From a virus, in UHGV virus genome UHGV-0848487: a DNA stretch of 40,883 bases. One strand, 5' to 3'. The notes below the pieces were generated by a model. The model saw nothing but the letters and a program-made list of their open reading frames with translations. It did no database searches and was not told the origin of the DNA. Positions 3,116-40,883 of this stretch are shown here, piece after piece (position 1 is the stretch's first letter; every line of letters starts with the position of its first letter). The position numbers were made by a program, and so were the translations under genes.

Positions 3116-4120
3116 TTACCGGTCTGCGTCGGCGATTGCCAGAGTACCGAGGGTGTGCTTGTTCTCGGCAACAGCTTTGCCCCAGTTAGTCGCGGTGAAC
3201 AGTTCTGCGTCCAGCGGAGATTTACCGCCGTTGGTAACGTCCCAGCTGTAGCCTTTCAGTTTCAGGCCGAAGCTGTAGTCCGCCTGCCAGGTGGTCTGGA
3301 TGCGGGTGTTACCGTTGCTGGTGTCAATGTTGCTGATAATGTCAGAAGCATTATCAACGATGATGCCGTTCGCAACTACGGACAGAACCTTAGTCTTGTT
3401 CGGGCTGCCAGCTTCGTACGGAACCTTAGTCTTGTTCGGGCTGCCAGCTTCGTACAGCGCAGGGATGTCGGAAATTACGTAACGCTTGCCGAGAACATCG
3501 ACAACCATAACGTTGCCAGCAACGAACAACTGGTTTGCGTTGGTCAGCGCTTTGTCCACCAGAGTGTGGTAGGCCGCGCCGGTCATGATGTCAGTGACCA
3601 ACAACTGAGACTGGTCGCCGAATTTAGCGTGGCTGTTGTTCAGCACGTTCAGGGACAAGCCAGCGGTCGCGGATACATCGTTAACCAGTGCAGTCTGACC
3701 GGATACCGCGGCAACGGCGGCACCAACAGCGGTGTTAAGCTGGTCAGCTAACAGTGCGTCAGAGAACCCTTCGGAGATAGCACGAATCGCGCTCGCCGGG
3801 TCTTCGTTCAGCCAGGTCATTTGCGCAGGCTCGAACAGTACCGGTCCGAAGCCGCCAGCGACTTTAACGCCTACATGCTCGCCCTGAGTCAGCGCGGTAG
3901 CTGCCTGAGACGCGATAGTGGCGTAACGGTCAACGCGGCGTTTAGCGGAGGCAATCTGGTTAAAGAAAGACTCACGGGAGAAGTCACCGCGCCATGAAGC
4001 GGTAGACAGTACAATTGCGCCACCGGAGGCTGCGTTAAACTGGTCAGTTTTCTGGCCAAGCAGTTCGATAGTGGTACCGACGATATCGTCGTTATAAACC
4101 TTCATATCTGACAGAGACAT
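3116..4120 (-). CDS. major capsid protein
   Basis: 334 aa ORF following scaffold-like gene; followed by terminator; position in head module; contains 36-bp in-frame tandem duplication. Confidence 0.6.
   Translation of the reverse strand: MSLSDMKVYNDDIVGTTIELLGQKTDQFNAASGGAIVLSTASWRGDFSRESFFNQIASAKRRVDRYATIASQAATALTQGEHVGVKVAGGFGPVLFEPAQMTWLNEDPASAIRAISEGFSDALLADQLNTAVGAAVAAVSGQTALVNDVSATAGLSLNVLNNSHAKFGDQSQLLVTDIMTGAAYHTLVDKALTNANQLFVAGNVMVVDVLGKRYVISDIPALYEAGSPNKTKVPYEAGSPNKTKVLSVVANGIIVDNASDIISNIDTSNGNTRIQTTWQADYSFGLKLKGYSWDVTNGGKSPLDAELFTATNWGKAVAENKHTLGTLAIADADR
3384..3455. repeat. 36-bp tandem direct duplication (2 copies, 35/36 identical) inside capsid gene
   Basis: gaaccttagtcttgttcgggctgccagcttcgtacg repeated head-to-tail; encodes duplicated peptide YEAGSPNKTKVP. 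Confidence 0.9.
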
Positions 4121-4126
4121 ATTCTG

Positions 4127-4753
4127 TTATCCTCGTTTGCCGTATTTGGCGTTAAGTTTTTGCTGGATTACGTCCGCACCACCGGCCCCGCCAGTAGAAT
4201 TTTTGTTACCGGAAGCCCCGCCGCCGGTTGCTGCATCTGCTTTAATCAGATGCGAAAATGCTTTGTGCTCACGCAGATACTTTTTAAATTGCTCTGCGTC
4301 GGTGGTGATGACATTACCATCTGCACCTGTGAACTTGGTCACAACGTCATCGCCGTCAAATTCGGTCTTGACCATCATAGCGATAATATCCGCTGCGCTC
4401 TCATCAATCAACATTCCAGACAACTGGCTGATAACTGATTTACGTTCCGCGCCGAGGATACGCTCAGCCATTTTGCTAATCTTACCGTCTTTCTCGGCGA
4501 GTACTGGCTCATACTGACTGCGCAACGTTTTCTCGAATGCCTCAAGTTCGCCGTTCTGTTTTGCGCGTTCCTGTTCGGCTTTCAGCTTCGCATCTGCGGC
4601 TTCTTTCGCGGCAGCGGCGGCAGCTTTCTTTTCAGACAAGAGCTTCTCGTTGTTAGCTTTAAGACCGGATACCAGCGCGTCAACTTCTTCTTTGGTAAAC
4701 GTGGTCTTAGTCTCTTGTTGTTCGATAGTTTCGTCTTTCACTTCTTCGCTCAT
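4127..4753 (-). CDS. capsid scaffolding protein
   Basis: Acidic, Ala/Lys/Glu-rich coiled-coil protein directly upstream of capsid gene; preferred start ATG 4753 (MSEEVKDET) after GGGGA. Confidence 0.55.
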   Translation of the reverse strand: MSEEVKDETIEQQETKTTFTKEEVDALVSGLKANNEKLLSEKKAAAAAAKEAADAKLKAEQERAKQNGELEAFEKTLRSQYEPVLAEKDGKISKMAERILGAERKSVISQLSGMLIDESAADIIAMMVKTEFDGDDVVTKFTGADGNVITTDAEQFKKYLREHKAFSHLIKADAATGGGASGNKNSTGGAGGADVIQQKLNAKYGKRG

Positions 4754-15212: not shown

Positions 15213-15241
15213 ATAGTAGCCTATTCTATCTTAGTGTGCAA
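15213..15241 (-). promoter_or_regulatory. sigma70-like promoter TTGCAC-N17-TACTAT (minus strand) overlapping GAATAG palindrome
   Basis: Minus strand TTGCACactaagatagaataggcTACTATtcattta; near-identical to promoters at 16507..16535 and 37733..37761. Confidence 0.5.
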
Positions 15242-16506: not shown

Positions 16507-16535
16507 ATAGTATCCTATTATGTTGGGGCGTGCAA
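16507..16535 (-). promoter_or_regulatory. sigma70-like promoter TTGCAC-N17-TACTAT (minus strand) overlapping GAATAG palindrome
   Basis: Minus strand TTGCACgccccaacataataggaTACTATtcactta, about 25 nt upstream of the 16472 gene. Confidence 0.5.
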
Positions 16536-17459: not shown

Positions 17460-19745
17460 ATGTCCGATGTAATTTTATCCTACTCGTGGTCCCGTCGCAA
17501 CGCGCGGGCGGAGAAAAAGGATATAAACGTCAGAACCACACATACGGCAACACTGGATGACCTGAAAGAGTTAATTCAGCCGCTTGATGCTGTTCGTGAC
17601 GGGATTAACCCTAAGACCGCGCCAGGTTATATCACTGCCGCGTGCGATTCTATACACAGCACCGTAAAAGACCCGGAAACAGGTGACTTTAAGCAGGCCC
17701 GTAAAGGCTTCTTTTATCGCTGTGACGCGTCTGTAAGCAAATCGTCGCTGGCGTATCTGGACTTCGACAGCGCAACGCCGGAAGAGTACCAGGAAGCGGT
17801 GCGCCTGGTTAAACGCAGCCGCCTGGCTATGTGCCTCTACACCACGGCATCCCATACCGATGGGTCACCGCGCTTTCGCGTCGTCATGCCGCTGGGCCGC
17901 CCGGTAGAAGGCGGTGACATCATCCGTGTTCGTCATGGATTGCTGGAGCACTTCTTCAAAGGTATGGGTGCGGACCGCAGCGGGTTCACTCTGTCTCAGC
18001 CGATGTACCTGCCGCCGGTTGGCTCTACTGTTATCTGGTCGCGCCGCAACGACCTGATTGACCCGGACGAGTTACTGGAAGGCATCCCCGCCGTTGACGT
18101 TAGCAGCGCATCGGATTACCAGATACCGAAAGAACTGCGAACAGCGTTTACCGATGCGTTTGAAGCACTGGCGTTCGAGTACGGCGGTATTATGACCCCG
18201 CGCGGCCTTAAGATGCCCGCTACGCCGGAACACGCCGAGAACTACAGCGACCCGACACCGCGCCCGGATGACTTCCTGCTGTGCTTCCCGCGCGAGGGAT
18301 ATGAAGCGCCTAACGTAACCATGATTCACGACACCGACATTACGGCGACCGAGGGCATGTCACCGAAAGAGGTGTGGAAGTATGCGTGCGATGCAACCGG
18401 GCTGCCGTTCAGTGAAGTCGCAGAGGCCATCGGTTGGGGTGCACGTGAATCTGTTTCTTGCAGCCTGGACGACCTTGAAGACGACGAGGACTCAGAGGAG
18501 GACGAGTTACCGGAACCGGTAAAGGCTGATTTCGTCGTTGAAGGGTACATGCCGTCGGATTGCATATGGGATATCGTCGGGGAGTCCGGTACGTATAAAT
18601 CCTTCTATACGCTGGGGATGATGTACCTGAGCGCCACCGGATACCGGTTTGCGGGTGCTGACACCCAGCGTTGCCACCATTTCTATATCGACGGTGAAGG
18701 CGGCGCAGCTACCCGCACCCGTATCGATGCGCTCGCGGCTAAATATGGCGAGGAAGGTAAAGATTATGTACATGTTATAGACATGGGTGAAATACTCGGT
18801 ATGCGAGAGGATAAAAAACTTACAGCACTCATCCGTATGATGCGTGAAACAGCAGGAGAGGAACCGATCGGTATGATTGCGTTCGATACCCTCAACCAGA
18901 CGCTGGCCCTGACGATTGATAAGTTTGATGAGAACAGTTCATCAACTGCAATCGGCATGGGTAAAGTCATCGCTATCCTTAAAAAAGCGCGTGACGCGAC
19001 TAAAGCTGCGGTAGGCGTTGTACACCATACACCGAAGGGCGGAAAGAAAGCCCGAGGTAGTGGTGCGCTGTACGCTGGCGTCGATGTGGAGCTGACAATC
19101 GAACGCGCGACAGACCGTCAGATAAATGTATACCACTCTAAATTTAAGCATGGGCCGCAACAGAAGACGGTTGGTATGGTGCTTGAGTCGGTACAGTTCC
19201 GCGAAGCCCCGCCACCGAAAGAATACCGCGCGGTTGAGTTCCTCGGTAGCACAGAGGAATACGGCACAACCGTTAACCTCGACCTGCCTGAGCCGCACAA
19301 AGCGCTTGTGCTTATGCCGTGGGGCTTCGAACCGTTCAAGACCGACGAGGAGAAAGAGCGGGAAGAAGGACTGACTAAGGAAGGTAAAGAAAACGTACGT
19401 AGGACCATGGAGAACGCCGTCAACAGTTCGGAAGCCACGATACTGGCGGCGTTTGAACTGGCGGAAGGAACCTACAACGGCAACGAAGGTATCACGGTAG
19501 CCGCGGCAAATAAGCTCGCACAGTCTGACCCCAACGCGAAGGCGTTCAACTCCAAAGAAGTCATAGAACGCGGAAAGATTAAGAAAATGGTTGAGGCGGG
19601 GTATCTTGTACCTGGTACGGACGAAAACAATCAGATAATCCCGGGCCGTTACAGATTGAATACCCGAATAACGGACAACAAGATTCCGAAGACAATATAC
19701 GAACCGAATGAAATGCTGACAGTGACAGAGGAGGATTTGGAATAG
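17460..19745 (+). CDS. replication protein: primase-like N-terminal region fused to RecA-like/AAA ATPase (helicase-type) domain
   Basis: 761 aa; LAYLDFD acidic motif in N-terminal half; deviant Walker A GESGTYKS, Walker B-like IGMIAFDTLNQ, HHTPKGG motif in C-terminal half. Confidence 0.55.
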   Translation: MSDVILSYSWSRRNARAEKKDINVRTTHTATLDDLKELIQPLDAVRDGINPKTAPGYITAACDSIHSTVKDPETGDFKQARKGFFYRCDASVSKSSLAYLDFDSATPEEYQEAVRLVKRSRLAMCLYTTASHTDGSPRFRVVMPLGRPVEGGDIIRVRHGLLEHFFKGMGADRSGFTLSQPMYLPPVGSTVIWSRRNDLIDPDELLEGIPAVDVSSASDYQIPKELRTAFTDAFEALAFEYGGIMTPRGLKMPATPEHAENYSDPTPRPDDFLLCFPREGYEAPNVTMIHDTDITATEGMSPKEVWKYACDATGLPFSEVAEAIGWGARESVSCSLDDLEDDEDSEEDELPEPVKADFVVEGYMPSDCIWDIVGESGTYKSFYTLGMMYLSATGYRFAGADTQRCHHFYIDGEGGAATRTRIDALAAKYGEEGKDYVHVIDMGEILGMREDKKLTALIRMMRETAGEEPIGMIAFDTLNQTLALTIDKFDENSSSTAIGMGKVIAILKKARDATKAAVGVVHHTPKGGKKARGSGALYAGVDVELTIERATDRQINVYHSKFKHGPQQKTVGMVLESVQFREAPPPKEYRAVEFLGSTEEYGTTVNLDLPEPHKALVLMPWGFEPFKTDEEKEREEGLTKEGKENVRRTMENAVNSSEATILAAFELAEGTYNGNEGITVAAANKLAQSDPNAKAFNSKEVIERGKIKKMVEAGYLVPGTDENNQIIPGRYRLNTRITDNKIPKTIYEPNEMLTVTEEDLE

Positions 19746-25905: not shown

Positions 25906-26100
25906 ATGAGACACGAATATGACCGCAAACCAGCACGTGACATCGTACCGGGTGACATGATTTTCAACGTTAAGACACGTCAACCTGTTGCCGTTGATAC
26001 GGTGTTCGTCGAGTCGAACGGTAAACTGGTTATCGAAGATGTAACGGGTAACGTTACGGCGTTCGGGCGTAAAGAGCTGGTACTCTACATTAAGGGTTGA
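25906..26100 (+). CDS. hypothetical protein (64 aa)
   Basis: ORF track; RBS AAGGAA. Confidence 0.45.
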   Translation: MRHEYDRKPARDIVPGDMIFNVKTRQPVAVDTVFVESNGKLVIEDVTGNVTAFGRKELVLYIKG

Positions 26101-26102
26101 TT

Positions 26103-27527
26103 ATGTCTAAATTTATCCGTCGAGAGTACCAAAAGCTCATGACTTCATTCATGCTGCGGCATCCGCGCTGTAATATTTGGGCTTCGATGGGCGCGGGCAA
26201 AAGTTCCGCAACGATGTGGGTGCTTAACCGACTGTTCCGCAACGGCCAACTTAATGATGATGACCGCGTGTTAATCCTCGCCCCTTTACGTGTTGCGTCC
26301 GGTACGTGGCCATCAGAACAAACTAAGTGGGGATTCCCGTGTCTGCGCGTCGTAGATGCGACCGGTTCAGAGAAGCGCCGCATCGCGGCGCTGGAGTCAG
26401 ATGCTAACGTGGTGTGCACTAACTACGAAGTTATCGAATGGCTGATTGACTACTACGGCAAAGACGACTGGCCTTTTACCGTTATCGTCGCCGACGAAAG
26501 CACGAAGCTGAAATCATTCCGCAGCCGTTCAGGTGGAAGCAAGAGGGCGAAGGCGCTAAGTAAAGTTGCGTTCGGTAAGGTTAAGCGTTTCATTAACCTG
26601 ACTGGTACGCCGTCGCCGAACGGCCTCAAGGACTTATGGGGCCAGAACTGGTTTATCGACGCGGGTGAGCGCCTCGGTTCTTCATACACAGCATTCACCG
26701 ACCGCTGGTTTAACTCGGTACAGAAAGGCAAGTCAGCTATGGCGCGTGAGTACCATGCGCGCCCGGGCGCAGATAACGAGATTCACCAGAAGATGAAAGA
26801 CATTAGTCTCACGATTGACGCCGCCGAGTGGTTTGGATGTGAAGCGCCGATTATTGTACCAGTGGAAATTGACCTGCCGAAGAAAGCACGTCAGGCGTAC
26901 ATCGATATGGAGGAAAAGTTATTCGCGGAACTGGAGAGCGGGGAAGTTGAAGCGGCTAACGCCGCGGCGAAGACCTCAAAATGCTTGCAGCTTGCATCTG
27001 GTGCCGTATATGTGACGGGCGAAGACGGGGAAGCAACGAAAGACTGGGAGAAAGTGCACGACACGAAACTGGATGCGCTGGAGTCAATTGTTGAGGAGCT
27101 ACAAGGTGCGCCGTTGCTTGTGGCTTATCAGTTTAAGCATGAACTGGAGCGCATCCTTAAGCGATTCCCGCAGGCGCAGGCGTTCGCCAAAGGTGCGAAG
27201 GGTAATAAGCAGATGGAAGCGTGGAACCGTGGCGAAATCGAAATCTTATGCGTGCACCCGGCGTCAGCCGGGCATGGTTTGAATTTACAGGACGGCGGGC
27301 ATCATCTGGCGTTTATTTCGCAAGGCTGGAATCTTGAGCACTATTTGCAGGTTGTCGAGCGTATAGGCCCGGTCCGCCAGAAACAGGCTGGCCACGAGCG
27401 CCCGGTGTTCCTTTATCACATAGTCGCTAAAGACACTCTTGACGAGGTTGTTGCCGCGCGTACAGACGAGAAGAAATCGGTCCAGGAAGAATTGCTTAAT
27501 TATATGAAGAGAAGAGGTAAGAAATGA
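26103..27527 (+). CDS. SNF2-family DNA helicase
   Basis: GAGKS Walker A, VIVADESTKLK motif II, NLTGTPSPNGLKDLW motif III; preferred ATG 26103. Confidence 0.7.
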   Translation: MSKFIRREYQKLMTSFMLRHPRCNIWASMGAGKSSATMWVLNRLFRNGQLNDDDRVLILAPLRVASGTWPSEQTKWGFPCLRVVDATGSEKRRIAALESDANVVCTNYEVIEWLIDYYGKDDWPFTVIVADESTKLKSFRSRSGGSKRAKALSKVAFGKVKRFINLTGTPSPNGLKDLWGQNWFIDAGERLGSSYTAFTDRWFNSVQKGKSAMAREYHARPGADNEIHQKMKDISLTIDAAEWFGCEAPIIVPVEIDLPKKARQAYIDMEEKLFAELESGEVEAANAAAKTSKCLQLASGAVYVTGEDGEATKDWEKVHDTKLDALESIVEELQGAPLLVAYQFKHELERILKRFPQAQAFAKGAKGNKQMEAWNRGEIEILCVHPASAGHGLNLQDGGHHLAFISQGWNLEHYLQVVERIGPVRQKQAGHERPVFLYHIVAKDTLDEVVAARTDEKKSVQEELLNYMKRRGKK

Positions 27528-34577: not shown

Positions 34578-36850
34578 TACTTGAACCCCGGCGCGTTTCT
34601 TGTGGCCTTGCGGGCCTTGCTAATCTTACTGTTGCTGTTCTGCAAAGAGGCCGCCACTTGCTCTTCAATGATGATACGCAAACGGCCTTCATCATCTTGT
34701 TCAGTGGATACGTTGCCAATCTGAGAACTCGTGTTGTTTACGATGGTAACATTAGACGGTCCGGAAGAAGACCCGTTTTGCCCCATAATTTCTTTCATCT
34801 GCTGCGCGGTGCGAACACGCGATGCCCCCGCGGGCATGATAACCTCAGGTTTACCACGTTCGGCGATGGTGGAAGCCTGCCCCGCGGATAACTGACCGCC
34901 CTGTTCACGCGCAGATCTGATAGCGGAAATCTGCGCCATACCCGCCCCAACGGCAGCGGCGGCGGCTACAGGTGCCAGGAACGGACCGACTACAGGGATA
35001 GCTGCCGTGGACTTGTACGCCTCAATAGCTGCGGTGTATGTGGCTATAGTGGCCTGTACGATAGCGAATGCCTTATACGCACCAGAAGCCTCGCCCAAAG
35101 CCGAACCGATGTTTGAGGCCATGTTACCAAAGGCGGTTGCCGTCGCGTCGGCGCGTTTCGTGGCGTACTGCTCGTTGATGGCGTTAAGAGCGGCCTGATA
35201 CTGCTTCTCGCTAATCAAACCCTGCTCGCGGTACTTATCCGCTACCGCCAGTTTCTGCTGTTCCTGGATGTCGAGAAGCTCAAGCTCAGTAGCGTTCTGA
35301 CCCATAATCTGAGCCATGAAGTCGTCACCTTTCTGCTGCTTTTCCTGGGCTTCTTTCTGGCGTTTATCCAGTTCATCTTGTCGTTTTTTCCCGGCTTCGA
35401 GGACGATAGCTGTTTTAGCTTGTTCATATTCTTTCAGGGACAACGCGCCCTGGCTGTAGAACTCTTTTGCCTTAGCCAGTTTCTGCTGTTCCTGCGCGTC
35501 GATAGCCTTTAACTCGTCGTTGTTCTGACGGGCCAAAGTGTCGAGGTAATCTTGCGCCTGATTCCGCAATTGCTCTGCTTTCTTGGCGGCGGCTTTTGCT
35601 GCTTTATCGTCGGTTGTCCCCACCCCACCAGTTCCGCCCTTTTTATTAACAAGGCTGGCTAAGTCTATTTCTTGCTTCTTACGCTCGTTGTACTGCTTGC
35701 GCTGTTCCTCAATTTCTTTCTTACGCTGCTTAGACCTGTTGGTGATGGCCTGTGATTCGGCCTCGGCGCGTTTTATGCTGGCGGCGTATGCGGCGTCAGC
35801 TTCTGCGGTCAGGTTTTTAAATGTGAGTGCTGCCGTTTTGCTCGGATCAAACACGTCTGCGAGGGTCTGACCTAACGCTACGGCGTAATCGTCAATGCGC
35901 TGGAACCACGCAATAACCTCGTGAAACGTCTGCTGGATGTCAGGCAACCATTCACGGATAGCATCCGGTATAGTACCCAGCGAGTCTGACATATCCGCGG
36001 ATTTGTCCTCGGTATCGTATGCCAGGTCGTTTAAGGCATCAGAAATAAACTTGAATGATTCATTGAACAGTGTCACCCAATCCTGGAGCGTGGCGGCTAT
36101 CTCATTAGACGCAATGGCGTCGGTGAGTGCCGAAATAGCGTCTTCTGCCTTCGCGGCTTGCTCACCTACGGCGTCGCCGAAACCGGATTGCGCCACCGCA
36201 AGTACAAGGCCATCAAAGGAGTCCGCCAGGCTCGACAACTGACCGTCTAACGTCTTAGAGCGCGTCTCCATCGCCCCGGCGAAATCGGTGTTGCCGATGT
36301 TTAGCAGGTATTTCTGAATCTCTTCGGAGTTCTTTTTAACCGTGGTGGTGACGCCGCGGAACGTGAACGAAACGGTATCTGCCTGTTGGGAAGACTTGAT
36401 ACCGAACTCTTTCAGTCGCTCAAACTCAAAGGTACTGGCGTCGGCAACCGCCTCAATCATCTGATTAAGGTCTTTACCCATAGCCGCCGCGGTGTTGCCG
36501 TAGGAGATTAACGCCTCTTTGCTTGGGTTCAGGCCGAGGGCCACCAGCTTAGTAAAGCCTTCCACCGCCTGGTTAAGACCATATGGGGTTTCTTTTGCGA
36601 ACTGTTGCAGGACGCTGAAAGCCTTAGCCGCGTTCTCAGCGCTCCCGGTCATTGTGATGAGGCCGGAGTTCAGCTTATCGAAGTTGCGCTGGGAGTCCAC
36701 CAGCGCACTGAACACCTGTTTGGCAGTTTCCAGACTGACAACGGCAGCGGCGGCGGCCCCCGCGGCTTTGGTAAGCCCGTTCAGTTGTGATGTGGTTTTA
36801 TCGACGCCGGTCGATGATACTCGTACGATCAAGCTAGCGGTATCAGCCAT
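34577..36850 (-). CDS. tail tape measure protein
   Basis: About 757 aa, Ala/Gln/Lys/Glu-rich coiled-coil with Gly-rich C-terminal region; preferred ATG 36850. Confidence 0.8.
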   Translation of the reverse strand: MADTASLIVRVSSTGVDKTTSQLNGLTKAAGAAAAAVVSLETAKQVFSALVDSQRNFDKLNSGLITMTGSAENAAKAFSVLQQFAKETPYGLNQAVEGFTKLVALGLNPSKEALISYGNTAAAMGKDLNQMIEAVADASTFEFERLKEFGIKSSQQADTVSFTFRGVTTTVKKNSEEIQKYLLNIGNTDFAGAMETRSKTLDGQLSSLADSFDGLVLAVAQSGFGDAVGEQAAKAEDAISALTDAIASNEIAATLQDWVTLFNESFKFISDALNDLAYDTEDKSADMSDSLGTIPDAIREWLPDIQQTFHEVIAWFQRIDDYAVALGQTLADVFDPSKTAALTFKNLTAEADAAYAASIKRAEAESQAITNRSKQRKKEIEEQRKQYNERKKQEIDLASLVNKKGGTGGVGTTDDKAAKAAAKKAEQLRNQAQDYLDTLARQNNDELKAIDAQEQQKLAKAKEFYSQGALSLKEYEQAKTAIVLEAGKKRQDELDKRQKEAQEKQQKGDDFMAQIMGQNATELELLDIQEQQKLAVADKYREQGLISEKQYQAALNAINEQYATKRADATATAFGNMASNIGSALGEASGAYKAFAIVQATIATYTAAIEAYKSTAAIPVVGPFLAPVAAAAAVGAGMAQISAIRSAREQGGQLSAGQASTIAERGKPEVIMPAGASRVRTAQQMKEIMGQNGSSSGPSNVTIVNNTSSQIGNVSTEQDDEGRLRIIIEEQVAASLQNSNSKISKARKATRNAPGFK

Positions 36851-37232
36851 GATTTCTACCTTCAAAGATTGCTTCTAAGCCCATGATAATGTCTATCTCG
36901 AACAGGCTAAGCTGTTTTTGCGTAACATCGAGATAGGCTTTCAGGTCTTGCCACGTAACGGATTCTCTTGCGAACAATACTACAGCGTCCTCGCGCACGT
37001 GTCGCGTAAACTTAATGTCGCAGTACGTCTCGAAGGTGGATATAAAAAGGGGCGGGCATTCTGGCCCACCCCGTCGCGCTGCACGTTTTTTCTTATCGAT
37101 TACACCCATCGCGATAAGCGCCTGTTCGTGTCCGTCGGCTATAGAATCAAACTCTCTGATTTTATGCTTATCCACAAACTCATAGGTGGCGAACCTGTAC
37201 AGCGCGTCTACTTTTCCTGTAATGCTTTGCGC
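36843..37232 (-). CDS. tail assembly chaperone T-like ORF (candidate -1 frameshift extension of G)
   Basis: Frame is open from 37232, overlaps last 8 codons of the G-like gene in the -1 frame; ends 8 nt into the tape measure gene. Confidence 0.35.
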   Translation of the reverse strand, partial: AQSITGKVDALYRFATYEFVDKHKIREFDSIADGHEQALIAMGVIDKKKRAARRGGPECPPLFISTFETYCDIKFTRHVREDAVVLFARESVTWQDLKAYLDVTQKQLSLFEIDIIMGLEAIFEGRNHG

Positions 37233-37624
37233 TCAGCGTTATGGAACGCTGCTACCTGTGTGCCTAATGCCTTGAACTGGTCCAGCAATTTGTTAAATGC
37301 TTCTTTAGAGAAAGGCTCATCAAAGCTCCAGCCGTTTACGACTTCTGCCGCGAGTTGCCGGTTGAGGTCTTCCGCCAGTTCGTTAATAGCCAGGTTATAT
37401 TCAGTATAGTCGCCGGATTCTTTGGCGGCTTTTTCCAGTTCTTCGAAACGCGCCAACCCGCGACGGTACGAAATAATGAAAGCACGCCCCGCTTTAACGG
37501 CGACATCCGCATCGGGACTTACAACGTTAAGCCATTCACCGGAGTCTTCGCCGTTTGGCAGCAGAATGGGCATCTTCTTGCCTACCAGTGCTTTCTCTTC
37601 GAAATAAAAATCAGAAAGTTTCAT
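37208..37624 (-). CDS. tail assembly chaperone (lambda G-like)
   Basis: 138 aa acidic protein immediately upstream of T-like ORF and tape measure gene. Confidence 0.45.
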   Translation of the reverse strand: MKLSDFYFEEKALVGKKMPILLPNGEDSGEWLNVVSPDADVAVKAGRAFIISYRRGLARFEELEKAAKESGDYTEYNLAINELAEDLNRQLAAEVVNGWSFDEPFSKEAFNKLLDQFKALGTQVAAFHNAERKALQEK

Positions 37625-37732
37625 TCTTTAATCCTTTGGTTAAGAGGTTACAGGTTAACGATAAATGCGCCAGACGGGAACCACCCGCTTTTCGTGTGCG
37701 ACACTAGGCGCAAAATTATTCTACCACAATAC

Positions 37733-37761
37733 TTGCACACCCCAATATAATAGGGTACTAT
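37733..37761 (+). promoter_or_regulatory. sigma70-like promoter TTGCAC-N17-TACTAT driving plus-strand accessory island
   Basis: TTGCACaccccaatataatagggTACTATtcactta; near-identical to the minus-strand early promoters at 15213..15241 and 16507..16535. Confidence 0.55.
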
Positions 37762-37791
37762 TCACTTACACCAACAATGAAGGGGTTTAAA

Positions 37792-37983
37792 ATGTCCAGT
37801 TTACCAGTTTCCTTAATTCTGTTTGCACTGCTCGCTTATTTCGCGCCTTTCCTGGTTGCGTACTTCCGTAACCATAAAGCGAAGTTAGCGATATTCATGG
37901 CTAATCTGTTTCTTGGTTGGGTTCTGCTGCCGTGGGTATTTATCTTAATCTGGGCGTGCAACTCGAATGTCAAAGAGAAGTGA
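37792..37983 (+). CDS. superinfection-immunity-like small membrane protein
   Basis: Preferred ATG 37792 after AAGGGG; AYFAPFLVAYFRNHKAKLAIFMANLFLGWVLLPWVFILIWA resembles the small superinfection immunity protein family pattern. Confidence 0.55.
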   Translation: MSSLPVSLILFALLAYFAPFLVAYFRNHKAKLAIFMANLFLGWVLLPWVFILIWACNSNVKEK

Positions 37984-38020
37984 GCTAGTATAGGACAAAT
38001 CCTAAACACGAGGAATAAGC

Positions 38021-39151
38021 ATGGCCAGGAAGAAAATAACCGACGAACAGTTACAGGAAGAATTGAACGCCGGTATGAAGAATATCGACATCGCCCGTAA
38101 ATACGGCATCTCCGACCGCGTTATTCGTATCCGTAAAGCGAAGCTGGCTAAGAAAGGTGTAGGCCACGGGCGTGACGTTAGTTACCTTGTACCGGACGGC
38201 TACAAGATTAAAGGAACGTCATCACTGGTGGATGAGTTTGGCAACACCAAGTTGCAATGGGTTAAGACCGACACCGATGCCGAACGTCAGGTTGAATTGA
38301 TGAAAGCCGTAATCGAAGGCATGAAGTCGGAGATTACACCAGTTGCACCTGTTAAAGCCGTTCGCGCCAAACGAGACGACAAGCTACTCAACCTTTACAC
38401 TGTGTCTGATTTCCATCTCGGTATGCTGGCCTGGGCTGACGAGAGCGGCGACGACTGGGACATGAAGATTGCGGAAGACCTGTTCTCCCGCTGGTTCGAC
38501 GCAGCGTTCCAGAAAGCACCGGATGCCGGAACAGGAGTTATTAATCTGCTGGGCGACCTTGCGCATTTCGATAGTCTGGACGCCGTTACACCTGCCAGTG
38601 GTCATGTTCTTGACGCTGACACCCGCTATCAGAAACTTGTACGCTACATGATTCGTATGGTCCGCCGTGTCATTGATATGGCTCTCGTTAAACATAAAAA
38701 TGTTCGCTTGCTTATCGTGCAAGGTAACCACGACGAAAGCGGAATGATTTGGTTAGCTGAGATGTTTAGTACGCTGTACGACAATGAGCCGCGTGTGTTC
38801 GTCGATACGTCGCCGGATGTTTACAAGATGGTGCAACACGGCAAAACGACGCTGTTCTTCCATCATGGGCATAAAGCACGATTCGACGCTATCGAACCGG
38901 TTATGATCGCCAAGTTCCGCAAAGCGTTCGGCGAGAGTGTTTACAGCTACGCCCACGTGGGTCACCTGCACCACCAAAAGATTGTAGAAAGCCGTAACAT
39001 GATTGTTGAGCAACACCGCACTCTCGCGGCTAAAGATGCATATGCCTCCCGCGGTGGGTGGATGTCGGGCCGCAGTGCAAACGTAATTACTTATAGCGCC
39101 GAATATGGCGAGGTCGCACGTTTAACTATTTCACCGGAGATGCTTGGATGA
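38021..39151 (+). CDS. HTH domain fused to calcineurin-like metallophosphoesterase
   Basis: N-terminal GMKNIDIARKYGISDRVIRIRK HTH-like; phosphoesterase motifs DFH, LLGDLAHFD, GNHDE, FHHGH, GHLHH in order. Confidence 0.7.
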   Translation: MARKKITDEQLQEELNAGMKNIDIARKYGISDRVIRIRKAKLAKKGVGHGRDVSYLVPDGYKIKGTSSLVDEFGNTKLQWVKTDTDAERQVELMKAVIEGMKSEITPVAPVKAVRAKRDDKLLNLYTVSDFHLGMLAWADESGDDWDMKIAEDLFSRWFDAAFQKAPDAGTGVINLLGDLAHFDSLDAVTPASGHVLDADTRYQKLVRYMIRMVRRVIDMALVKHKNVRLLIVQGNHDESGMIWLAEMFSTLYDNEPRVFVDTSPDVYKMVQHGKTTLFFHHGHKARFDAIEPVMIAKFRKAFGESVYSYAHVGHLHHQKIVESRNMIVEQHRTLAAKDAYASRGGWMSGRSANVITYSAEYGEVARLTISPEMLG

Positions 39152-39633
39152 AAGATATTGTGATTTTCGATTTAGACGGGACATTGGCAGATGGTACTCA
39201 TCGTTTACACCTGCTGCCGAAAGATAACTACGGCGAAACCTGTGCGTGGAAACCATTTAACATGGCGTGCAAAGACGATGCACCCATTAAAGATAACATC
39301 GAACTGTGTAACGCCCTTAATCGTCGCTATGCCGTTATTATCTTAACAGGCCGTAGTGATGACGCGGAAAAAGAAACCAGAATGTGGTTGCAGCGCCACC
39401 GCGTCGAATTTTATCAGTTAATCATGCGCAGCAAACACGACAACAGAAAAGACATCGTAATTAAAGAAGAGGTGTTGCGTGCTATTGGGCCGGAGAGAAT
39501 CTTGTGTGCATTCGACGACTCTCCAGCGGTAATAAAGCATTTCCGCGAACTCGGCATAACCACTCACGCAGTTACTGAATACGACTGTAACGGGAACTCT
39601 ACGCACTTAAAACCACATGGGAGTGATAAATAA
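39148..39633 (+). CDS. HAD-superfamily phosphatase
   Basis: Motif I FDLDGTL, motif II ILTGRS, motif IV FDDS; 161 aa. Confidence 0.7.
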   Translation: MKDIVIFDLDGTLADGTHRLHLLPKDNYGETCAWKPFNMACKDDAPIKDNIELCNALNRRYAVIILTGRSDDAEKETRMWLQRHRVEFYQLIMRSKHDNRKDIVIKEEVLRAIGPERILCAFDDSPAVIKHFRELGITTHAVTEYDCNGNSTHLKPHGSDK

Positions 39634-40187
39634 TGGCTAAGGTAATTATTCTTAATGGTCCTGCGGGCTGCGGGAAAGACACACTTGCTAGGGCGCTGGT
39701 AGAAATGGGCTTTGCGAAGGGTGTCGCCAGTTTCAAGAATCCGATGTTCAATATTGCTATGGCTGCGTTAGGCCAGGATGCTTACCGCGAGTTTCTCGAC
39801 GGCTACGACGACCGGGCGCGGAAAGAAAAGCCAGAGGGTTTCCTTAACGGGTTGTCTCGGCGTCAGTTCATGATTGCCATTTCCGAGCAATTCATTAAAC
39901 CGGTATTCGGTGATGATTATTTCGGTAAGTATCTTGCCGGAAACTTGCCCGACGGCGACGAAGTTTTTGTGGTGTCTGATGGCGGGTTCGCCAGCGAAGT
40001 AGCCCCTATCGTTGCCGCGGGGCATGATGTGAGAATCGTCCGCTTGCACAGAGACGGCCATACGTTTGAAGGGGACAGCCGCGGTTACCTGTACGATATT
40101 GATGGTGTAAAAGATTATGACACCTACATCATACCGGGTTACGTTAAATCGAACGCTATAGGCATTGCTTTAAGATTAGGCTTGTAA
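39633..40187 (+). CDS. P-loop nucleotide kinase (dNMP kinase-like; polynucleotide kinase not excluded)
   Basis: Walker A GPAGCGKDT resembling T4 gp1-type GKDT P-loop; 184 aa. Confidence 0.55.
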   Translation: MAKVIILNGPAGCGKDTLARALVEMGFAKGVASFKNPMFNIAMAALGQDAYREFLDGYDDRARKEKPEGFLNGLSRRQFMIAISEQFIKPVFGDDYFGKYLAGNLPDGDEVFVVSDGGFASEVAPIVAAGHDVRIVRLHRDGHTFEGDSRGYLYDIDGVKDYDTYIIPGYVKSNAIGIALRLGL

Positions 40188-40191
40188 GAAA

Positions 40192-40211
40192 AAGGCCCCA
40201 AACGGGGCCTT
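40192..40211. terminator. bidirectional intrinsic terminator at convergent junction
   Basis: AAGGCCCC-aaac-GGGGCCTT then agTTTTAT; same stem as 27666..27685 with complementary loop. Confidence 0.6.
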
Positions 40212-40215
40212 AGTT

Positions 40216-40883
40216 TTATGCGTATGTGATACGCTGAATAACAATAGACGACTGGTACTGGTTGCCAGTAGCCTGGCCTTCAATAGACTGAGTGATTGAC
40301 TCAGGTCCTCCAATCTCAGGTGTAGCCGCCGTAAGTTCTGCACGTTTCAAACTGAAAGACATAGCCCCGTTTACCCCAGCCAGAATAGAGTTAATCTCCA
40401 CCTGCTGCTCGTTGATAAACTTCTGAATCATCGCCATGTCGTACAGCTTACCGGAGATGGAGAAGGTGTTAGCTGCTCGGCTACGCTCCACAAACGCTAC
40501 GTTAGTGTTGCCGAGTTCGAACTGTGCGGACGCGCTGTTGTCGTTGGTGATGGTCAGGCTGTCGCAACGCAACGGCGTAGAACCGTCGAACACAGAAACA
40601 TCGACCGAGGAGAATGGCTCATCACCAAAAGTAACAGATGAGAAGTTGGAACCGGTCGGCGGCGTAGTGAGAATCTCCTGTCTGCGACCGATGAATGGGA
40701 AGCTGCCAGTTACCATCGCGTTAACAGCCTGTTCGATGGTAAAACCAGAAACTTCCACGCCTTTGGTTAACGTGTACGCGTCAGTACCGCCGCACTGGCC
40801 TTTGTACCAGGTAAGGATAGAGAACGTCTTACACGTGTTACCGGTTTCCAGCGTGTCGCCGGTTTTAGCCTTACTAGTTTTTG
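40216..40883 (-). CDS. major tail protein, C-terminal part (partial; ORF enters from window end)
   Basis: Minus-strand frame open from 40881 to stop at 40216 (ORF track gives 40216..40758 from an internal GTG); upstream codons translate without stop to the window edge. Confidence 0.5.
   Translation of the reverse strand, partial: KTSKAKTGDTLETGNTCKTFSILTWYKGQCGGTDAYTLTKGVEVSGFTIEQAVNAMVTGSFPFIGRRQEILTTPPTGSNFSSVTFGDEPFSSVDVSVFDGSTPLRCDSLTITNDNSASAQFELGNTNVAFVERSRAANTFSISGKLYDMAMIQKFINEQQVEINSILAGVNGAMSFSLKRAELTAATPEIGGPESITQSIEGQATGNQYQSSIVIQRITYA

Follow-up and report, generated by a model that had tools for sequence, protein, structure and literature searches.

We analyzed the 40,883-nucleotide virus genome UHGV-0848487 (the window, meaning the whole stretch at its full length) and focused on a cassette of four plus-strand genes inserted between the minus-strand tail-tube gene and the minus-strand G/T chaperone genes (Table 1), exactly where a preliminary description of this DNA had placed four plus-strand open reading frames (ORFs) amid minus-strand tail genes. 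The cassette encodes an Imm-family protein, a helix-turn-helix (HTH) metallophosphoesterase (MPE), a HAD phosphatase and a P-loop kinase, and our family and fold assignments agree with the four folds named in that description. We propose, with about an even chance of being right, that the cassette is an independently transcribed unit combining a superinfection-exclusion gene with a three-enzyme module for the salvage of DNA precursors. The proposal builds on the observed gene structure and the motifs of promoter and terminator, on assignments of family and fold, on active sites that are intact and on synteny between phage groups. Nucleotide-pool remodelling had been mentioned in the preliminary description as the alternative to nucleic-acid end healing, and salvage is now the best-supported reading, given the nuclease-type motifs, exonuclease folds and HTH of the MPE, the Pnkp-family HAD, the translational coupling of the enzyme genes, their recurring order and their nucleotide-metabolism neighbours in other phages.

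Predicted functions of the cassette proteins

The MPE matches PHROG 704 (‘DNA repair exonuclease’) with an E value of 4e-167, and Pfam Metallophos models reach it only below their cut-offs. A first homologue search returned only relatives at least 97% identical, and diversity was obtained from a search of cluster representatives. The family comprises 4630 representatives at 50% identity and 2051 phage records, with members in Drexlerviridae, Dhillonvirus, Jerseyvirus, Vibrio, N4-like and Campylobacter phages. Across 56 homologues with 31–49% identity, motifs I–V (DxH, GD, GNH[D/E], H, GHxH) are intact: D130, H132, G178-D179, N236-H237, H282, G314 and H317 are invariant and H315 is conserved in at least 90%. 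H182, also conserved in at least 90%, lies in the sequence G178-D179-L-A-H182, which aligns to GDLLH of T. maritima Mre11; a histidine in a GD-x-x-H motif II is of the nuclease type, as in the GDLFH of Mre11.

Searches of PDB sequences with the MPE and the kinase, both single-sequence and profile, gave P-loop and HTH noise together with weak Mre11 matches, and fold comparison was needed. The AlphaFold model of the MPE (predicted local distance difference test score 91.7) contains a three-helix HTH (residues 8–44), a beta-hairpin with a helix, and the MPE domain, in line with a layout of HTH at residues 1–45, beta-hairpin and helix at 61–102 and MPE domain at 119–376. The HTH has a weak GerE-like match (E 8e-4), and the model has no C-terminal capping domain and carries the N-terminal HTH instead. 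Its three nearest folds are the DNA exonucleases PolD DP1, SbcD and Mre11, not enzymes of the lambda-phosphatase/Pnkp type; matches in a viral fold library were to uncharacterized proteins only. Motifs and model point to a predicted Mn-dependent DNA nuclease of the Mre11/SbcD/DP1 type, and the labels ‘DNA repair exonuclease’ and ‘DNA polymerase II small subunit’ for the MPE go back to fold analogy only.

The HAD protein matches PF25109 HAD_PNKP (E 8e-20, 71.9 bits against a cut-off of 27.6) and phrog_415 (E 4.5e-66), and its nearest PDB structures are Pnkp1 (4xrp, E 1.6e-6) and T4 Pnkp (5uj0, E 1.6e-5; 1ltq, E 1.8e-4). The nucleophile motif D8-L-D10-G-T12 (DxDxT) is present; D8, D10, R69, K106 and D124 are invariant, and T12, T67, G68 and D123 are conserved in at least 90%, among 16 homologues. 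PF25109 was found in 120 of the 120 HAD homologues listed. By family membership the protein is a stand-alone Pnkp-type phosphatase with 3′-phosphates as its predicted substrate. It is routinely annotated as ‘polynucleotide kinase’, a misnomer for a protein with no kinase domain.

The fourth protein combines the fold of T4 gp1 with the P-loop GPAGCGKDT (pattern GxxxxGKDT, in which GKDT is unusual) and matches PHROG 139 (‘dNMP kinase’; E 4e-46). A profile search of PDB sequences with this kinase did not retrieve the T4 gp1 structure 1DEK. By analogy we regard the protein as a putative gp1-type deoxynucleoside monophosphate (dNMP) kinase. Activity as a dTMP kinase in vivo has been proven for a similarly diverged gp1-like dNMP kinase, with only 19.5% identity to T4 gp1 (PMC10653934). 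A link between the cassette kinase and the proven TMP kinase PP_1964 was sought and dropped, as a scan of bacterial genomes gave only five loci from metagenome-assembled genomes and not PP_1964. T4 gene 1 itself (locus L094, 4650–5375) lies in a morphogenesis region too, with 57A on one side and tail gene 3 on the other, a parallel to the kinase in the Kagunavirus tail region.

A Shine-Dalgarno site precedes each of the three enzyme genes, and their stop-to-start overlaps (Table 1) indicate translational coupling. The first gene, with a ribosome-binding site AAGGGG 7 nt before its start, encodes a protein with two predicted membrane helices at about residues 4–25 and 32–57 (hydropathy windows >1.6) that matches PF14373 (E 9.3e-13, 48.3 bits against a cut-off of 27.9) and phrog_1039 (E 4.7e-23). 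It is most likely a superinfection-exclusion gene of the T4 Imm family, as predicted from these matches. The first slot is swappable: K1H-type relatives carry in place of Imm a 108-amino-acid (aa) signal-peptide protein (phrog_14165, function unassigned), located at 3997–4323 of locus L011 (phage K1H) and also present in L015, L016, L021 and L023. The exact promoter of the cassette, described below, was found in four of these five K1H-type loci and is absent by exact pattern in L016; K1H-type phages also have a different chaperone allele, at ~50% identity.

A proposed salvage route for DNA precursors

In the mechanism that we propose, the cassette would be a separate unit, antisense within the tail genes and driven by a sigma-70-type phage promoter shared with two promoters ahead of a small-ORF cluster. 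The Imm-type inner-membrane protein in the swappable first slot would provide superinfection exclusion. The HTH-tethered MPE would bind DNA and digest it to 5′-dNMPs, with the fragmented host chromosome as the most plausible substrate, and the HAD phosphatase would strip 3′-phosphates from DNA ends, oligonucleotides or 3′-nucleotides, which might otherwise block the exonuclease or become dead-end products. The gp1-type kinase would convert dNMPs to dNDPs, and the host nucleoside diphosphate kinase would then supply the phage DNA polymerase. The phage has its own family-A DNA polymerase and no ribonucleotide reductase (RNR), thymidylate synthase or other nucleotide-synthesis gene, which would leave salvage as the main way to obtain extra precursors. 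From the features of the cassette described here we infer which substrates the enzymes use, that their three activities are coupled, that the host chromosome is the target and when the genes are expressed.

Published work provides a context for such a route. Phages T1 and TLS break down the chromosome of their host and recycle the nucleotides, by means of enzymes still to be identified (PMC11447400). Guernseyvirinae, the subfamily that contains Kagunavirus, are sensitive to Ec2ApeA, a sensor of deoxydinucleotides attributed to host DNA breakdown (bioRxiv 10.64898/2026.01.26.701840).

Several points weigh against salvage. Host DNA degradation is something that we infer for Kagunaviruses, and a 3′-phosphatase has no obligatory place after an exonuclease that leaves 3′-OH and 5′-P products. 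The trio of enzymes is not an obligate system, as the MPE often occurs without HAD and kinase. The match of the kinase to T4 gp1 by hhalign is weak (probability 24.7%, E 7.9e-4, N-terminal 74 columns only), and with sequence similarity this weak, dNMPs are a predicted acceptor only.

Gene neighbourhoods across phage groups

A survey of gene neighbourhoods in related phages, suggested in the preliminary description, covered 93 loci. The order MPE-HAD-kinase was found in 32 of them, namely 17 Kagunavirus loci, Klebsiella phage KL (Webervirus), Vibrio phage JSF38 and 13 further contigs; outside Kagunavirus the trio occupies other genomic positions. In every Kagunavirus locus examined (17/17), the three enzyme genes follow one another in this order between the chaperone and tube genes. 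Of the 87 loci with a kinase, 73 have the HAD gene upstream of it, adjacent or overlapping in 35. Tunavirus BIFF (locally), Dhillonvirus and Vibrio 92E46 have the MPE alone, and in the T1-like phage swan01 the MPE and kinase are ~13 kb apart. Jerseyvirus jersey also lacks HAD and kinase: after Imm and MPE come genes for an HNH endonuclease, for a C-terminal ATPase fragment of 76 aa and for an Ant-like anti-repressor (locus L003, 5181–6696), and the ATPase fragment may be the remnant of a disrupted gene. Between Jerseyvirus and Kagunavirus the MPE is 55% identical, tracking the flanking tail genes (49–72%), which suggests that Guernseyvirinae had the MPE ancestrally and gained the other genes later.

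In Drexlerviridae, the exonuclease (our MPE) stands beside the lysis cassette in 508 of 522 genomes, and the genes found most often behind it are ‘PNK’ and ‘dNMP kinase’; the authors of that study guessed a role in nucleotide supply for this run (PMC13164509). The preliminary description did not recognize the four-gene combination as a described system, a claim that did not survive: besides this Drexlerviridae run, the gene set is already annotated in ~200 Guernseyvirinae records.

More distant homologues stand next to genes of nucleotide metabolism. A kinase homologue in an rV5-like phage is near thyA and RNR, and in an N4-like roseophage the MPE adjoins thymidylate synthase and dCTP deaminase. 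T4-like phage JSE has a stand-alone HAD from the same subfamily (42% identical; locus L096, 3498–3974), annotated as ‘polynucleotide kinase’, whose gene overlaps the stop codon of nrdB and is translationally coupled to it; another HAD match, at a different place in this genome, is the presumed Pnkp (pseT). The nrd-operon context in JSE raises doubt as to whether 3′-phosphate ends or 5′-mononucleotides are the substrate of the HAD. A T7-like DNA-metabolism block with the order exonuclease-endoVII-MPE-kinase-ligase also counts in favour of salvage. In T7-like viral contigs of ~44 kb (L064–L071, e.g. L066 3496–7523), the gene immediately ahead of the gp1-like kinase encodes an MPE from another family, phrog_221; with phrog_221 in the same slot, the association of MPE and kinase holds across MPE families. 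Phage PTXU04, considered as a Kagunavirus with fitness data (CRISPRi-ART), proved to be unrelated.

Alternative readings of the cassette

The preliminary description favoured Pnkp-like end healing as a counter-defence. In a form shifted towards DNA, the MPE would trim damaged or blocked ends, the HAD would remove 3′-P or 2′,3′-cyclic-P, the gp1-fold kinase would serve as a non-orthologous polynucleotide 5′-kinase, and sealing would fall to host LigA/RtcB or, in relatives, to a phage ligase, either to counter nicking or anticodon-nuclease defences or to repair phage DNA. The profile and structure comparison proposed there upheld the Pnkp family of the HAD, whose nearest solved relatives are two end-healing enzymes, and gave a different answer for its partners: the MPE resembles Mre11/SbcD/DP1 rather than the lambda-phosphatase/CthPnkp type, and the kinase has the gp1 fold. 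The GKD P-loop lineage (gp1, phosphomevalonate kinase) phosphorylates phosphate acceptors, which speaks against a polynucleotide kinase. The tight synteny of HAD and kinase recalls the two halves of T4 Pnkp, but no HAD-kinase fusion was found among the top 120 homologues of either protein. Co-translation of a nucleotidase and a dNMP kinase might otherwise risk a futile cycle, a point in favour of end healing. As for sealing, 13 loci have an ATP-dependent DNA ligase immediately after the kinase, six of them with the order MPE-HAD-kinase-ligase; this adjacency lies within the generic T7-like block described above, and we did not retain it as support. The window itself contains no ligase, as the preliminary description had noted: with 14 phage ATP-dependent DNA ligases from related loci as queries, the best tblastn match has an E value of 0.1, and none is annotated in the close relative fKuEco01. 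The presence in JSE of a presumed Pnkp besides the HAD of the nrd operon and the nucleotide-metabolism contexts of distant homologues also argue against end healing, as does the finding that Kagunaviruses are not unusually resistant to the BASEL-tested defences (bioRxiv 10.1101/2024.09.12.612763). We consider end healing unlikely and counter-defence the weaker rival to salvage. Its boldest version, in which the gp1-fold kinase is not a dNMP kinase but a polynucleotide 5′-kinase that forms with HAD and MPE a split three-protein system for trimming and healing DNA or RNA ends, strikes us as quite improbable.

It is also possible, if doubtful, that the cassette is no functional unit and that the gap between tube and chaperone genes is a cargo slot, in which an ancestral stand-alone MPE, an exclusion gene and an independently acting HAD-kinase pair accumulated under a shared promoter with no shared pathway. 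This would fit the exchange of Imm in K1H-type phages, the replacement of HAD and kinase in jersey, the lineages in which the MPE is alone or, as in swan01, distant from the kinase, and an MPE whose divergence follows that of the flanking tail genes. On the other side stand the stop-to-start overlaps of the three enzyme genes, the identical MPE-HAD-kinase order in at least three unrelated phage groups at different genomic positions, and the likelihood, by family, that all three enzymes act on nucleic-acid or nucleotide phosphoesters. A far more remote idea is that of anti-defence by signal degradation, with the MPE cleaving immune nucleotides (CBASS, Pycsar, Thoeris, type III CRISPR) or another small molecule and with HAD and kinase further metabolizing its products. 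The extreme spread of the MPE in phages could be taken to favour it, but the top three fold matches are nucleases, the Mre11-type motif II histidine is present and the fused HTH argues for a DNA substrate. We know of no anti-defence family that matches the MPE. NCBIfam and PADLOC scans gave nothing above threshold for the cassette proteins and therefore no link to known defence or anti-defence families, and the MPE is core and persistent in Drexlerviridae, unlike typical accessory anti-defence genes (PMC13164509).

Promoter, terminator and transcription

The preliminary description had assigned the cassette its own promoter, TTGCAC-N17-TACTAT, resembling the leftward promoters, and a bidirectional terminator, and both were recovered. 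The exact promoter pattern occurs three times in the window, at 37733(+), 16535(−) and 15241(−), compared with a chance expectation of ~0.005 exact matches (12 fixed bases, 82 kb; our own arithmetic). Position 37733, given as the start of the island, marks a real element, which is the −35 hexamer rather than a gene start. The three copies have ~35 nt in common, CTTGCACaCCCCAAtATAATAGGnTACTATTCAcTTA, and are alike beyond the hexamers, with ATAATAGG in the spacer and TTCAcTTA after the −10. The pattern was found at the equivalent position in 13 of the 17 Kagunavirus loci, including loci with another first gene. Only 8 of the 12 sigma-70 consensus positions are matched, which is why a generic sigma-70 scan missed it. 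The extended block could be an operator for a phage regulator; the fKuEco01 annotation offers two examples nearby, a DicA-like repressor and a small HTH protein.

The terminator hairpin has fold energies of −20.6 kcal/mol (+) and −15.5 kcal/mol (−), with z-scores of −4.7 and −3.0, and closes both the island (+) and the tail-tube transcript (−). With the tail-tube transcript stopped there, transcription of the chaperone, tape-measure and distal tail genes must come either from read-through across the 2.4-kb island, in antisense, or from a separate promoter. Such a promoter would lie in the 167-bp divergent intergenic region (37625–37791), in which we saw by eye on the minus strand only a weak TTGGTG-16-TATTAT. 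A further terminator-like hairpin at 37049–37072 (−), with nine pairs (eight of them G-C) followed by TTTTTAT, is inside the T part of the chaperone frame and might serve in attenuation or in setting the G:GT ratio.

With its own promoter and terminator, opposite strand and gene content varying among relatives, the cassette has the marks of a moron. The composition of the cassette is not foreign (GC 44–51% versus 51.1% for the genome), and a foreign origin, considered on grounds of composition, was set aside as the composition test gave no deviation. The preliminary description had called it an early-expressed moron; the separately promoted and terminated cassette stands, and ‘early’ does not. 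In coarse RNA-seq of Kagunavirus K1B4, the only RNA-seq study of a Kagunavirus, the Imm gene is grouped with the DNA polymerase and methylases and is not included in the ‘early’ class, and the tail genes are in another class (PMC12645636). This grouping agrees with independent transcription of the cassette, and not specifically with ‘early’ expression.

The window and its relatives

The window is a near-complete Kagunavirus genome, 99.5% identical to vB_EcoS_fKuEco01, in which the tail-tube gene is split by the window ends. The 2.7 kb surrounding the cassette are 99.3–99.6% identical to Escherichia phages vB_EcoS-UTI89UKE1, fKuEco01, fTaEco01 and fTaEco03 and 96–98% identical to K1G and K1ind1-3 (genus Kagunavirus, subfamily Guernseyvirinae), and 199 phage records match this region. 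Compared with fKuEco01, a C5-cytosine methyltransferase gene (~850 bp) is missing around 26081–26121, and the helicase/primase allele (17460–19670) is divergent, with no megablast match. No methyltransferase lies within or adjoining the cassette.

Table 1 Features of the cassette and its surroundings in the window.
Feature	Position	Strand	Remarks
Promoter copy, second	15213–15241	−	Exact pattern; ahead of minus-strand small-ORF cluster
Promoter copy	16507–16535	−	Exact pattern; upstream of minus-strand small-ORF cluster
Tail assembly chaperone T part	36843–37175	−	Left flank
Tail assembly chaperone G	37208–37624	−	Left flank; PF08748, PF23812, phrog_15027; frameshift pair in fKuEco01 annotation
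Island promoter TTGCAC-N17-TACTAT	37733–37761	+	Within conserved ~35-nt block, ~37731–37770
Imm	37792–37983	+	63 aa; ATG at 37792 with Shine-Dalgarno site, matching fKuEco01 annotation; upstream ATG at 37777 less likely
HTH-MPE	38021–39151	+	376 aa
HAD phosphatase	39148–39633	+	161 aa; start overlaps MPE stop (ATGA)
P-loop kinase	39633–40187	+	184 aa; start overlaps HAD stop (TAATG)
Bidirectional intrinsic terminator	40192–40211	both	GC-rich stem of 8 pairs; T-runs on both strands
Tail tube protein	40216–40883	−	Right flank; PF18906 (E 5.3e-25), fKuEco01 annotation agrees; 5′ part beyond window end

Significance and comparison with known systems

We rate the cassette as a putative module of phage nucleotide salvage, put together from an unusual choice of enzymes, one of them a split Pnkp phosphatase, in an arrangement that is itself already known. 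The MPE is nearly universal in Drexlerviridae and also present in Guernseyvirinae and Dhillonvirus, and together with HAD and kinase it is an obvious candidate for the degradation of the host chromosome in T1-type phages. Kagunaviruses are used as a small chassis for synthetic biology, in which the cassette is a natural site for cargo: it is insulated, has a promoter and terminator of its own, and variation in its first slot is tolerated. If end healing were true, it would be a widespread new counter-defence: a split system would hand breaks to host ligases or to the adjacent phage ligase of Vibrio and T7-like relatives, and would shield about two thousand siphoviruses from nicking or anticodon-nuclease defences.

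The closest counterpart is the Drexlerviridae run of Klebsiella phage KL (gp06–08), which has the same families, order and orientation, with MPE 42%, HAD 57% and kinase 46% identical, and which is the same module as the cassette trio. It differs in its place, at the end of the replication genes beside the lysis cassette and not antisense in a tail operon, and it has no Imm gene and lacks the Kagunavirus island promoter and terminator.

The comparison with end-healing enzymes is more distant. T4 Pnkp (PseT) and Capnocytophaga Pnkp1 share with the cassette HAD the DxDxT family PF25109 and, in the 1ltq and 4xrp alignments, the TGR and DNRKD..KEE/DD motifs. In the bifunctional Pnkp of T4 a Pnkp-type P-loop 5′-kinase is joined to the phosphatase; the cassette HAD is not fused to such a kinase, its partner kinase belongs to the gp1-like fold lineage and there is no RNA ligase partner. 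Pnkp-Hen1 (Clostridium thermocellum Pnkp) likewise applies a kinase and a metallophosphoesterase to nucleic-acid phosphoesters, whereas the cassette has an MPE outside the lambda-phosphatase type and a kinase that is not Pnkp-type, lacks both a ligase domain and Hen1, and adds a HAD phosphatase.

Judged from its model, the MPE would be Mre11-like in its chemistry but not a canonical member of that group. Mre11/SbcD and PolD DP1 differ from it in that the phage genome provides no Rad50/SbcC or DP2 partner (no SMC-like ORF was found in the window or in the annotated close relative) and in that the MPE has no capping domain, adds the N-terminal HTH and beta-hairpin, and is only 12–18% identical to them. 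The Imm protein resembles T4 Imm in its match to PF14373 above cut-off, its small size and its two membrane helices; it differs in length (63 aa, compared with 83 aa in T4 Imm) and in being exchanged, in some close relatives, for an unrelated secreted protein. The kinase is only 19% identical to T4 gp1 (PDB 1DEK) and shorter (184 versus 241 aa), and its family is almost always paired with a Pnkp-type HAD, unlike T4 gp1.

Salvage of host DNA is carried out in T7 by the gp3 endonuclease, the gp6 exonuclease and the gp1.7 nucleotide kinase, and in T4 by gp46/47 and gp1. The cassette most likely follows the same logic, in which nucleases release dNMPs and a phage kinase moves them towards dNTPs, here in a phage without RNR. 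The protein families differ from those of T7, and the cassette adds a dedicated 3′-phosphatase; compared with T4, it is a reduced operonic set without the Rad50 partner and with the same addition. All four cassette genes have T4 counterparts, namely imm, 47, the C-terminal half of pseT and 1.

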